IMG/VR virus record: IMGVR_UViG_3300019927_000008
Location: 2,888 to 66,887 of that record
Strand: one strand, 5' to 3'
From: a virus
Length of the DNA stretch: 64,000 nt
Every line of letters starts with the position of its first letter. Within the stretch, counting starts at the first letter, position 1. Below the pieces are notes generated by a model. The model was not told the DNA's origin and ran no database searches. It saw nothing but the letters and a program-made list of their open reading frames with translations. Made by a program: the position numbers and the translations under genes. Below, one piece after another: positions 4,142 through 60,145 of the stretch.

Positions 4142-4597
4142 ATGGACCTGAATTTCACACAAGTTACCTACGACGGTGAGCTGGCGGACTTCGAGGCCGA
4201 ACGGCTTCGAGAGATCATCCGCGAGTTCGAAAATGCACAGGAGTCCAACGTCGCTGAGTTCGAGGACGCGGCTGACGCACTCGACGGCGTTGATGAAAAG
4301 ATCGAAGACTTCGCGGAGGCGCGACAGGCCCTTCTCGATGACATCACCGAGGCGGAAGCCTTCGATGAAGTCCCGCTGACTGAAGAGGCTCTGGAGGAGC
4401 AGTCCTTCGGCCAGCTTCAGGAGTGGCATGATTTCGTTGCCGATCATGGCGTCGAAACCGGCGACGAGACAGACGAAGCTGACGAGTCCGGTTCGGACTT
4501 CGATGACTTCGGTACGAAGTCTCCCACCCCCGACGATGAGGATGACGAAGACTTCGCGGAAGATGCCCTGAGCGAGATGCAGGGTGTCAACTTCTAA
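4142..4597 (+). CDS. Putative scaffolding protein
   Basis: Very acidic, helical, upstream of the capsid genes. Confidence 0.55.
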   Translation: MDLNFTQVTYDGELADFEAERLREIIREFENAQESNVAEFEDAADALDGVDEKIEDFAEARQALLDDITEAEAFDEVPLTEEALEEQSFGQLQEWHDFVADHGVETGDETDEADESGSDFDDFGTKSPTPDDEDDEDFAEDALSEMQGVNF

Positions 4598-28873: not shown

Positions 28874-28950
28874 GATTGATTGTTGTGTCCCGCCGCCACG
28901 GTGCGCTCACCGGGGGCGGTTTCGAGACACAGGAGGTAGGGCCTCCTTCT

Positions 28951-52738: not shown

Positions 52739-53068
52739 CTATCCATCATCTTGAACCACATCGGTTGCCGCTCGTTCAGCGGCGTCAGCAGGCTGTTCAG
52801 CGAGGGCCGCGTGTTCTTCCACCACGTCGATGAAGGTGTTGATGATCGTCTCCGAAGTCGCTCGCTTAGAGACGCTTGTGCCTTGCTTGGCGTGCGTCTC
52901 TTTGACGAGTCGGTCGAAGGCGAGGGAATCATTCTCACGAAGCTCCTGTGCTTCGTCAGCGAACGAAGCGCAGGCCGCCGCCGCTCGGAACGCCGCCGTG
53001 TTCCGAACCAGATCAGCCAGTTCGTCGTTGCTCATACTGCCGAGAGCTTGTGGGTTGTCGTCAGCCAT
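52739..53068 (-). CDS. Hypothetical protein
   Basis: First gene after the promoter and mini-tRNA; strong codon bias. Confidence 0.6.
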   Translation of the reverse strand: MADDNPQALGSMSNDELADLVRNTAAFRAAAACASFADEAQELRENDSLAFDRLVKETHAKQGTSVSKRATSETIINTFIDVVEEHAALAEQPADAAERAATDVVQDDG

Positions 53069-53080
53069 TGTAACCTCAAG

Positions 53081-53118
53081 GGGTAGCGGGGAGTCGAACC
53101 CCGCGCCGCCACTTACCC
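53081..53118 (-). ncRNA. Mini-tRNA (acceptor plus T arm) at transcript start
   Basis: GGGUA-AGUGGCGGC-GCGGGG-UUCGACU-CCCCGC-UACCC directly after the promoter at 53119-53149. Confidence 0.75.
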
Positions 53119-54870: not shown

Positions 54871-56034
54871 CTACTGCGAGGTGGCTTCCTCCAGACGTTC
54901 TTCGGCGTCGTTGATCCGGCTCCGAGTTTCCTGCGGGATCGGTGCGCCGTTCGCCGCGTTCTGGATGTCCTGACGGCGGCGGAAGAAGGCCCGAAGGTCG
55001 TCGTAGACATCTCGGGGAGCGACCTGTGCCTGCCGAAGGCCACGCTCCTTGGCGACCTGTCGGACGGCGGCTTCCACCGAAGGAAGCTCGCTGTAGCTCC
55101 GGTACACCTCTTCGAGAAGGTCCGGGTCCACCTCGAAGACGCCTTCGAACTGCTCCTGATCGGTGAAGACCGGCTCCGTGATGTAGCTGAAGAACCGCAT
55201 CAGCATCGCCAGCTCGTTCACCGAGCAATGGCAGTACGGGTTGAAGAGAAGCCCGTCAGCGAAGTCCGGCTCGACGTTGAACGCCGACCGAATGTCGTGC
55301 TTGTCGTCGGAGTGGGAGTGCTGAAGGCCACACTCATCGACCGGACACTCGAAGGATCGAACCGAAGAAGAACCACCACCGATCATGGACTGAGCGTCCT
55401 GAAGAACGCCCATCACTTCGCCGTCCACGTCGGAGTCCATGTCGGACATGAACTGTTCGAGGGTGTTACTCATGCTCTCACTTCGACCCTCATCGAGCGT
55501 GCTGTGGTTCCCGAGGCTCCACATCCGAACTTCGTAGCTCTCTTCGTCGTCTTCAGTCGCGGTCTGTTCCTCGTCGTTGCCGTCGCCGTTCTGCATGAAG
55601 TCGTACATGGTGGTGTTGTCTTCGTCGTCGTCGGTTTCTGCACTTTCCGTCTCGTCGTCGCTGAAGAGGACGGGTTCGATCTCGGGGTCTTCGTCGGTTG
55701 CCTCACTTTCCGACTCGTCGCCTTCGAACAGTTCGGGGTTGATCTCTACGACTTCGTAGTCGTTGAAGAGGTCCCGAGAGTTTCTGACCGAGGCGAAGTA
55801 GTGAGCTTTCTCTTCGTCGTCGTAGACACTATCATTGTCTATCGCTTCTTGAACGTCACCAGTTTCCACGTTGACGATTGCGAACTTCGTTTCACTACTC
55901 CGTTCTTCTACGTGGTAGGAACCATCTCGGACGATGGATCGAGTCATCCGAGACGCCCTACCCTTTGCATCACCTTTGTCGTCGTAGGTTTGGTACTCTG
56001 TACCGTCTTCGCCAACTACTACGTATTCCGTCAT
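54871..56034 (-). CDS. Hypothetical acidic protein with C/H metal-binding cluster
   Basis: CPVDECGLQH and CHC motifs; follows a mini-tRNA leader. Confidence 0.6.
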   Translation of the reverse strand: MTEYVVVGEDGTEYQTYDDKGDAKGRASRMTRSIVRDGSYHVEERSSETKFAIVNVETGDVQEAIDNDSVYDDEEKAHYFASVRNSRDLFNDYEVVEINPELFEGDESESEATDEDPEIEPVLFSDDETESAETDDDEDNTTMYDFMQNGDGNDEEQTATEDDEESYEVRMWSLGNHSTLDEGRSESMSNTLEQFMSDMDSDVDGEVMGVLQDAQSMIGGGSSSVRSFECPVDECGLQHSHSDDKHDIRSAFNVEPDFADGLLFNPYCHCSVNELAMLMRFFSYITEPVFTDQEQFEGVFEVDPDLLEEVYRSYSELPSVEAAVRQVAKERGLRQAQVAPRDVYDDLRAFFRRRQDIQNAANGAPIPQETRSRINDAEERLEEATSQ

Positions 56035-56080
56035 GGGTTGTGTCCCGTCTATTTCTGCCGCGCCTCGGGGTGGCGCAAAG

Positions 56081-56119
56081 CCCGTCCCCGGAGTCGAACC
56101 GGGGGAAGACCATCACGGG
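56081..56119 (-). ncRNA. Mini-tRNA (acceptor plus T arm) at transcript start
   Basis: CCCGU-GAUGGUCUUC-CCCCGG-UUCGACU-CCGGGG-ACGGG directly after the promoter at 56121-56151. Confidence 0.75.
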
Positions 56120-56148
56120 TTAAGACTCGGGTTGCAGGGAGTTAAGTC

Positions 56149-56820
56149 TTATCTTCTATCCGGAGTGTTTTCGATGGCCCACAACGCCTTCGCCACGAAT
56201 TGAAGCTCCGAGATGGTAAGTCGATACTCACCAACCTCCCGTTTGACGTGATCTTCGGGAGACTCGATTTCTACGTCGTAGGCTTCGACCTTCGAACCAG
56301 CCCCGATGATCGAACCGTCACGGTTCTTGCTGATGACATCGGGATGGTAGAAGTCACCTTCGTAGGTCAACAGAACGTGACCGTTGATGAACCACCCACC
56401 TTCCCGCTCTTCGATCCGCTCCGACAGCGGCTCGACGAAGGCTTCGAGAGCTTCGACCCTCACCATGTCTTCCCGCACCTTCTCGAAGAGATTGATGATG
56501 GGTTGAACGCTCTTTCCATCCCCCTCTTCGTACATCTCTGCCATCGCCTCGATCAGGTCGGTCTTGTGATGAGCGCCGAGGGTCAGATCAGTATTTCCAA
56601 CCCGAAGGGTGTAGGCCTCATCATTTGAAGGGATGATGGTTACTCTCGGCTCTTCTTCGGCTCCTTGAGACTGCCAGACTTCGTTTCCTGCATCGAGAAG
56701 CCCGGCAAGGCCATGACCGTAGATCAGCTTGTTGTAGTCCGAAGACTTCGTTCTGGTTACTGTGCTTCCATCATCCGTCATAACGAGGTAGTTAGTCCCG
56801 TTATCGTCTAAGACTTGCAT
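56149..56820 (-). CDS. Hypothetical protein
   Basis: Clean ORF downstream of the GHKL ATPase. Confidence 0.55.
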   Translation of the reverse strand: MQVLDDNGTNYLVMTDDGSTVTRTKSSDYNKLIYGHGLAGLLDAGNEVWQSQGAEEEPRVTIIPSNDEAYTLRVGNTDLTLGAHHKTDLIEAMAEMYEEGDGKSVQPIINLFEKVREDMVRVEALEAFVEPLSERIEEREGGWFINGHVLLTYEGDFYHPDVISKNRDGSIIGAGSKVEAYDVEIESPEDHVKREVGEYRLTISELQFVAKALWAIENTPDRR

Positions 56821-59856: not shown

Positions 59857-60053
59857 TTTCGTAGAGGGGGGTAACGTCGATTGCTTTCACGCCATCCATT
59901 CCTTCGAACCGCTCATCGGGGTGTTCAAAAGTGACACTCCAATGGGGATCGAACGCCGGTGATTGCTTACTCCAATCAGGATTATCCGGAACGACCTGAT
60001 AGACGTAGGCAACTGGTTCTTTGTCTTTCATTCGAGATTAGTCCCTAAGTCAT

Positions 60054-60114
60054 GGGCATCATCAGGGGAAGGGCGACTAACTCCCTCCCAACAGGGACGA
60101 TCCCTGTTTCACCC
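60054..60114 (-). ncRNA. Type II hammerhead ribozyme HHR3
   Basis: GGGU-GAAA-C[AGGGA/UCCCU]GUU^[GGGAGGG/CCUUCCC]-CUGAUGA-U-GCCC; loop AGUC pairs with tail GACU; starts right after the promoter at 60115-60145. Confidence 0.9.
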
Positions 60115-60145
60115 TAAGACTCTACTCCTAAGAACTTGAGTCTTT
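60115..60145 (-). promoter_or_regulatory. Bipartite viral promoter
   Basis: AAAGACT-N17-AGTCTTA. Confidence 0.7.

Follow-up and report, generated by a model that had tools for sequence, protein, structure and literature searches.

The closest described counterpart of the element analyzed here is the t-element in the leader of haloarchaeal 5S rRNA. In H. volcanii, tRNase Z cuts 3′ of this t-element and makes the 5′ end of the 5S rRNA (Hoelzle et al. 2008 and 2012, as cited in PMC4326828 and PMC3296008), and t-elements flanking an engineered crRNA were cut in vivo by RNase P and tRNase Z (PMC4326828, PMC3296008, PMC4946936). tRNA-like structures at the 5′ or 3′ ends of plant mitochondrial mRNAs are believed to act in cis as signals for RNase Z and/or RNase P (Forner et al. 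2007, PMC1920247). Haloviruses themselves contain type II hammerheads (HHphage; Perreault et al. 2011, PMC3088659), and the 5′ end of the HF2 helicase transcript lies within 3 nt of the hammerhead cleavage site (PMC3088659). Promoter activity has been shown experimentally for HF2 repeats with CTAAAGACTTA (Russ et al. 2021, PMC8707807). The host 5S t-element, the plant mitochondrial t-elements, the HF2 promoters, and the halovirus hammerheads were thus known already. No report of t-elements in halovirus mRNA leaders was found in the literature searched, the HF2 feature table (first 50 kb), or the HSTV-2 and HCTV-6 regions.

The window analyzed in this study comprises 64,000 nucleotides and corresponds to bases 2888–66887 of a 71.8-kb IMG/VR virus record. 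At 56.1 kb it contains a mini-tRNA, referred to as copy 2, which is located between two viral protein genes and not in an rRNA operon 5′ of 5S rRNA. The genes around copy 2 are all on the minus strand, and the features of the site are listed here in the 5′ to 3′ direction of that strand.

56149-56820, minus strand: upstream ORF, whose TAA stop codon (56151-56149) overlaps motif 1
56139-56150, minus strand: motif 1, AAGACTTAACTC, six exact copies in the genome versus 0 for the control pattern
56121-56128, minus strand: motif 2, GAGTCTTA, 12 exact sites versus 1.8 expected
56080-56119, minus strand: mini-tRNA (t-element) copy 2, 40 nt, geometry 5/10/6/7/6/5/1
56119-56115, minus strand: acceptor 5′ strand CCCGT (RNA CCCGU), 5 bp with ACGGG
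56114-56105, minus strand: linker GATGGTCTTC (RNA GAUGGUCUUC), 10 nt
56104-56099, minus strand: T stem 5′ strand CCCCGG, 6 bp
56098-56092, minus strand: T loop TTCGACT (RNA UUCGACU)
56091-56086, minus strand: T stem 3′ strand CCGGGG
56085-56081, minus strand: acceptor 3′ strand ACGGG
56080, minus strand: discriminator C; predicted tRNase Z cut at 56080/56079
56060-56076, minus strand: hairpin GCGCC-ACCCCGA-GGCGC, beginning 3 nt past the discriminator
56037-56046, minus strand: motif GGGACACAAC, 2 nt ahead of the start codon
54871-56034, minus strand: downstream ORF, 387 aa, phrog_30610, with its ATG at 56034

A sequence-only reading of this site had described the stems, the loop, and a linker with UGG, and this description proved exact when the minus strand was read again. 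The 3′ foot that it had placed at about 56079 agrees in position with the discriminator and the predicted cut. As it had also claimed, the T loop is identical to that of a copy at 53.1 kb and the stems of the two copies are different.

The minimum-energy fold of copy 2 is the proposed minihelix. However, its folding energy did not differ significantly from shuffled sequences and was ordinary for GC-rich RNA (z between −0.5 and −0.8 for the elements; −0.5 for copy 2). Within this genome, matches to a loose structural descriptor were not above chance (~3.5 matches per shuffled genome), and the T-loop word GTTCGACTC was not enriched. ARAGORN and the Rfam tRNA model reported nothing at 56.1 or 53.1 kb, and a tRNA gene was rejected as the identity of the element, a cloverleaf with anticodon and D arms being absent by both methods. 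The Rfam scan of the whole window returned no family at the site at the gathering threshold, and with E up to 5 the sole match was that of the copy 1 T arm to the tmRNA model (13 bits). A megablast search with 5.5 kb against phages gave no match. When the full leader was folded, CCCGU could alternatively pair with an ACGGG beside GGGACACAAC; this pairing was set aside because it is not conserved in HSTV-2. Comparative evidence, and not single-genome counts or energy, decides that the fold is a selected one.

The 387-aa protein and an HSP90-like protein of 946 aa are ~40% identical to proteins of HSTV-2, HRTV-7, and HCTV-6, which are members of the genus Mincapvirus in the Hafunaviridae. Orthologues of the 387-aa gene (38–52% amino acid identity) occur in G001, G002, L066 (G003), HSTV-2, and HCTV-6, and in all five of these relatives a minihelix with other stem sequences occupies the same leader position. 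The acceptor and T-stem pairs in these leaders are GGGUA+GGUCGG, GGAUG+GAAGGG, CCCCG+GGGAGG, and CGCAG+UCGGGG, the leader of HCTV-6 being the same as that of HSTV-2. Each orthologous leader continues after the minihelix with a hairpin and then GGGACACAAC. RNAalifold, applied to a plain MAFFT alignment of the five distinct orthologous leaders, recovered exactly the acceptor and T helices, with changes in both partners of nine pairs and all 10 core pairs intact. Across 15 elements, standard pairs fill all 165 pair cells and 10 of the 11 pairs vary on both sides, whereas a slid-partner control gave 36–58% pairing as compared with 100%. The 15-row alignment had been fitted to the model, and the RNAalifold result on the plain alignment therefore serves as an independent check. 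The loop-closing G-C pair, which is the equivalent of G53:C61, is invariant in 15/15 elements and the adjacent pair is G-C in 14/15. Further tRNA-type features are the T loop UUCRAYU, a GG in the linker (often within AGUGG or UGGUCU), and the discriminator C; no CCA is encoded. All copies are on the coding strand and between genes.

A covariance model (R1) was built from six viral copies of equal 40-nt length, a choice made because MAFFT, when run on all 14 elements, misplaced the acceptor strands of the long-linker copies. R1 scored copy 2 at 44.4 bits. Outside the training set it retrieved copy 1 at 53.1 kb (43.4 bits, E 9e-8), a match at 64999 in G001 (41.6 bits), and two matches in HF2 (L067, AF222060.2), at 4376–4414 (37.9 bits) and 2906–2945 (32.4 bits). 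A model of this kind had been proposed earlier, and it did find further examples in haloviruses, namely in HF2. The retrieval of copy 1 by a model built without it also bears out the claim that copies 1 and 2 form one family. As for the claim that covariation supports a selected fold, the compensatory changes are real, but it is the relatives that show them and not the two copies alone. Judged by these changes, the fold is a selected tRNA-like minihelix. L066 also contains a longer tRNA-like leader element (2034–1968, minus strand) with a 7-bp acceptor and a 36-nt insert able to form an extra arm, which appears intermediate in form between a complete tRNA and the 40-nt minihelix.

Relatives were also sought by other routes. 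A protein search of IMG/VR for relatives of the 387-aa gene found none. Among public sequencing runs, none was listed for the window, and no RNA data set was listed for this virus or for HSTV-2. An IMG/VR scan with the two promoter motifs gave 40 stretches, and only those of G001 and G002 appeared related; the remaining ones were judged to be chance matches from the expected count. Metagenome and genome scans for the hairpin with GGGACACAAC yielded, among the matches listed, mostly unrelated GC-rich bacteria, the only real match being L120, a near copy of G002.

Two other copies were located in the window.

53080-53118, minus strand: copy 1, GGGUA / AGUGGCGGC / GCGGGG-UUCGACU-CCCCGC / UACCC / C
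41254-41304, minus strand: third copy, acceptor CCGAG/CUCGG, 20-nt linker, T stem UGGUGG/CCACCA, 8-nt loop UUCAACUC

Copy 1 is preceded by the same two motifs as copy 2 (53148–53137 and 53126–53119), and an ATG follows at 53068, 11 nt past its discriminator. Its linker is identical to HF2 4381–4389. Orthologues of the copy 1 gene in G001 and G002 lack any element. The third copy sits upstream of promoter motifs; its linker holds the stop codon of a 50-aa CxxC ORF (41293–41445), and a part of this linker, GGUAAUCAGGCC, is common to the HSTV-2 element L007:7271–7317. Two other HSTV-2 elements (L007 11310–11320 and 14205–14215) have an odd loop, UUCACGA, and their linker contains UAAGAC, the core of the promoter/alpha motif. 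Several mini-tRNAs are followed by a trailer CUUGAG(G), as seen at 53069–53079 and 41245–41253 (minus strand) of the window, in G001 (L015:10449–10455), and in G002 (L017:17937–17943). The same trailer also follows genuine viral tRNAs, which suggests a shared 3′ processing or termination context.

R1 was then run, with E up to 0.001, over 151 genomes sampled from the class that holds G081, and 36 of these 151 cellular genomes had matches. The element was directly upstream of 5S rRNA at 19 of 31 inspected loci. At the other 12 loci it did not adjoin 5S rRNA, and location may therefore not define the t-element family. The 5S-adjacent host elements scored 34–43 bits, compared with 32–43 bits for viral copies outside the training set and 44–55 bits for the training copies; one profile thus recognises the viral elements and the genuine 5S-adjacent elements. 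Host 5S elements show the geometry 5/10/6/7/6/5/1, and a linker such as CGUGGUCUGA has UGGUCU in common with the linker of copy 2 (GAUGGUCUUC). Like copy 2, the haloarchaeal 5S t-element consists of an acceptor-like helix stacked on a T arm, has no D stem and no anticodon arm, and combines a 5-bp acceptor, a 10-nt UGG(UCU) linker, a 6-bp T stem, the loop UUCGAYU, and the discriminator C. Because the geometry is the same, the linkers nearly match, and R1 hits both, copy 2 is, by its structure, a member of the haloarchaeal t-element family in a new setting. Sequence comparison establishes three points here, namely the fold, the compensatory changes with which it is conserved, and the structural family that it shares with the host 5S-leader t-element.

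The viral copies differ from the 5S t-element in that they occur in protein-gene leaders or between cistrons and not in the 23S-5S spacer. They are also present in several copies per genome, in many cases joined to a viral promoter motif, with the hairpin and GGGACACAAC after them. Plant mitochondrial t-elements (Forner et al. 2007, PMC1920247) follow the same logic as that proposed below for the viral mRNAs. However, they have no sequence relationship to the viral elements and belong to another domain of life, which makes this an analogy of mechanism and not family membership. The R1 matches away from 5S rRNA in the Halobacteria L335, L338, L333, L311, L315, and L317 include several located between a stop codon and an ATG 2–28 nt downstream. 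Two proteins encoded downstream of such host elements match PHROG families, and these loci may be proviral. A tRNase Z cut at non-5S elements before an ATG would generate leaderless or near-leaderless mRNAs.

The two R1 matches in HF2 (2906–2945 and 4376–4414) are intergenic mini-tRNAs that are unannotated in AF222060.2, and no mention of them was found in the searched text of PMC8707807. Downstream of each come a GUAGC/GCUAC hairpin and GUGACACCG-AUG. The hairpin always begins 2–5 nt after the discriminator (five orthologous leaders, HF2, and host locus L311), and its stem covaries, with GCGCC in copy 2, GUAGC/GCUAC in HF2, and GGCGGG/CCCGCC in L311. Other RNAs occupy the slot of the mini-tRNA. 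A type II hammerhead, whose three stems and GAAA and CUGAUGA cores were recognised by direct reading, is located at 60040–60145 (minus strand) of the window, and further type II hammerheads follow directly after the same promoter motifs in G001 and G002. The hammerhead at 60.1 kb was not reported by Rfam in the whole-window scan at the gathering threshold or in a looser scan of 51–61 kb. Like the mini-tRNA, these hammerheads of the halovirus type II kind (PMC3088659) lie after promoter motifs and before a start codon, and both RNAs would yield a processed 5′ end, but a hammerhead cuts itself whereas the mini-tRNA would need host enzymes. Real tRNAs are found in HF2 between the promoters IR2/IR3 and the first CDS, and the leader at 28.9 kb of the window, which has the same promoter, starts with a plain hairpin. 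A swap of hammerhead and t-element at one orthologous gene was not found; the genes after hammerheads have few orthologues in the set, all without an element. The presence of other cut RNAs, hammerheads and tRNAs, in the same slot is circumstantial support for a role in processing.

These comparisons lead us to favor, with moderate confidence, the interpretation that copy 2 is a viral t-element through which viral transcripts are cut by the tRNase Z of the host and perhaps also by its RNase P. Most likely the virus exploits the tRNA-trimming enzymes of its host, given that the design is that of the 5S element cut by tRNase Z. The copy 2 minihelix would imitate one half of a tRNA, that of the acceptor stem and T arm, together with the elbow, with the GG of the linker standing in for G18-G19 of the D loop. 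Host tRNase Z would recognise the element in the viral transcript and cut between 56080 and 56079, and RNase P may cut at 56119 where the RNA extends 5′ of the element. The cut would separate the mRNA of the 387-aa gene from upstream RNA, and the new 5′ end would start 3 nt before the hairpin at 56076–56060, which could act as a protective 5′ hairpin on the cut mRNA. We infer that cleavage takes place, which enzyme performs it, and that the hairpin is protective. At the 41.3 kb copy and at the HSTV-2 element L007:14200, the stop codon of an upstream small CxxC ORF lies within the element linker, so that an RNase P cut would remove the stop and only the 3′ cut would be harmless to the upstream gene. 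Against this interpretation speak the length of the coaxial stack, which is 11 bp as compared with 12 bp in tRNA, the ordinary folding energy, the lack of an element at the copy 1 gene in G001 and G002, and the mapped HF2 5′ end T-4384, which lies away from the predicted cut. Other computationally found tRNA-like elements of H. volcanii are said not to have been cut in vitro.

The promoter region bears on which RNAs would contain the element. With up to two mismatches, motif 1 occurs at 27 sites versus 9.2 expected. Motif 2 follows the motif 1 core AAGACTTAAC at a fixed spacing of 13 nt, which is the same in G000, G001, and G002, and it is either the promoter-proximal (−10) element or the second of two regulator sites. 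Motif 1 is similar to the alpha motif found in class I intergenic-repeat promoters of HF2, as is the word AAGACTTA. These repeats combine alpha, beta (TATA, TCTTTAAGTC), and gamma (CGTCTNNTAGAG, holding the transcription start site) within 56–58 bp, whereas the copy 2 site has only the alpha-like word and a beta-like AGTCTTA and no gamma motif. The mini-tRNA occupies the place of gamma, and the site does not qualify as an HF2 class I repeat. Mini-tRNAs, hammerhead, and plain hairpin all start 31–33 nt after the motif. In HSTV-2, HCTV-6, and L066, the orthologous element comes directly after the upstream stop codon and has no promoter motif. The earlier designation of the element as a promoter-proximal leader hence fits copies 1 and 2, which follow promoter motifs, but neither these three relatives nor the 41.3 kb copy, which precedes its motifs. 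As the defining feature, proximity to a promoter is only partly supported also because a mapped HF2 start, T-4384, falls inside an element linker. By all these arrangements, the conserved unit does not include the promoter.

Transcription at copy 2 would start at the first acceptor base if the 26-nt TATA-to-start distance of the HF2 repeats is applied, and the common distance of 31–33 nt from the motif to mini-tRNAs, hammerhead, and plain hairpin argues for the same base. The HF2 element at 4376–4414 matches copy 1 in spacing, with its acceptor at +31 from AAGAC, and in its linker (AGUGGCGGC). T-4384 is the start site of a non-IR promoter, and the cloned promoter fragment ended at 4385 (PMC8707807). 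This position is the G of UGG in the HF2 linker and does not coincide with the predicted HF2 tRNase Z site 4414/4415; no other 5′ end is mapped near a homologous element in HF2. If the HF2 start holds at copy 2, transcription would begin at G56111/56110, inside the linker. Since the HF2 5′ end is inside the linker, RNAs born at the promoter may lack the 5′ acceptor strand, and only read-through RNAs would then carry an element that can be cut.

The mapped HF2 end is also an argument for the strongest rival explanation, according to which the minihelix is not cut and is a 5′-terminal or internal mRNA structure that stabilises the transcript, adjusts its translation, or serves as the binding site of an elbow-recognising protein of the host or virus. 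T-4384 precedes the T arm, and PMC8707807 reports no end at 4415. Other leaders with the same promoter start with a plain hairpin, as at 28.9 kb of the window, and the combination of GGGACACAAC and hairpin suggests a larger leader unit. However, a plain hairpin would be enough for stability, and the tRNA-specific features as well as the identity with the tRNase Z-cut 5S design would be left unexplained. Elements are found, moreover, at the 3′ ends of ORFs and without promoters. We regard an uncut minihelix as unlikely, though worth keeping in view.

The number of copies raises the question of whether the released 40-nt mini-tRNA could itself be the product, which would act on a tRNA-binding factor of the host (a CCA-adding or modification enzyme, or a defence nuclease) as decoy or competitor, with the cut of the mRNA as a side effect. 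This would be in line with the several copies in each genome, all of which keep the elbow mimic intact, and with the cluster of tRNAs and tRNA mimics carried by the virus. However, the stem sequences vary freely and only the fold is kept, the place before the same gene is conserved in six viruses and fits a cis-acting role, and there is no anticodon arm as a target for anticodon nucleases. A decoy function thus appears improbable. The GC-rich hairpin followed by CUUUG and the location of the 41.3 kb copy at a gene end, ahead of a promoter, could be taken to indicate a transcription terminator or attenuator for the upstream gene, but only two to three U follow the element and they are not conserved, the T-loop consensus and the acceptor helix would have no explanation, and the HF2 RT-PCR transcript F2 runs through both HF2 elements (PMC8707807 supplement). 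We rejected this very improbable explanation on that evidence. A remnant that now lacks a function, either a decayed tRNA gene or an attP-like piece of a tRNA, for which the truncated tRNA-Thr that serves as attP in HF2 (PMC8707807) and the real tRNAs in HF2 leader positions could be cited, is hardly credible and was likewise rejected, given the conserved position and compensatory stem changes across viruses at 38–52% protein identity and the several copies with unrelated stems and both acceptor strands present.

Haloarchaeal mRNAs are mostly leaderless, and the source of usable 5′ ends for genes inside long operons is poorly understood. If the viral t-elements are cut, tailed haloviruses of at least two named genera (HF2; HSTV-2/HCTV-6) and an uncultured group would recruit host tRNA-maturation enzymes for mRNA processing. 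This would be a parallel to mitochondrial tRNA punctuation and t-elements, and the haloarchaeal t-element would be extended from a single rRNA case to a general mRNA processing signal. A wider proposal, which we put forward as possible but short of probable, is that Hafunaviridae punctuate long transcripts with interchangeable cutting modules (t-elements, hammerheads, and tRNAs), each followed by a protective hairpin, and that internal cistrons thereby become separate, stabilised or near-leaderless mRNAs. RNAs started in the linker by the promoter would escape, whereas read-through RNAs would be cut, giving two differently regulated mRNA populations per gene; host or proviral operons with t-elements 2–10 nt before start codons might use the same trick. 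HF2 is cultivable and its elements are unannotated in its reference genome, which makes the idea directly testable. The viral t-elements could also serve as compact natural processing cassettes in haloarchaeal genetics.

The motif GGGACACAAC was observed beyond the leaders with mini-tRNAs. It is found (GUGACACCG in HF2) 2–10 nt before many ATGs in G000, G001, G002, HSTV-2, and HF2, and it is present whatever the leader type, be it t-element, hammerhead, or hairpin. Within the window it also occurs at 28882–28891 (minus strand) and 43555–43564 (plus strand). One copy, on the plus strand beside the tRNA cluster, has no ATG after it. In leaders of the hairpin type, GGGACACAAC can pair with an upstream GUGUCYC.
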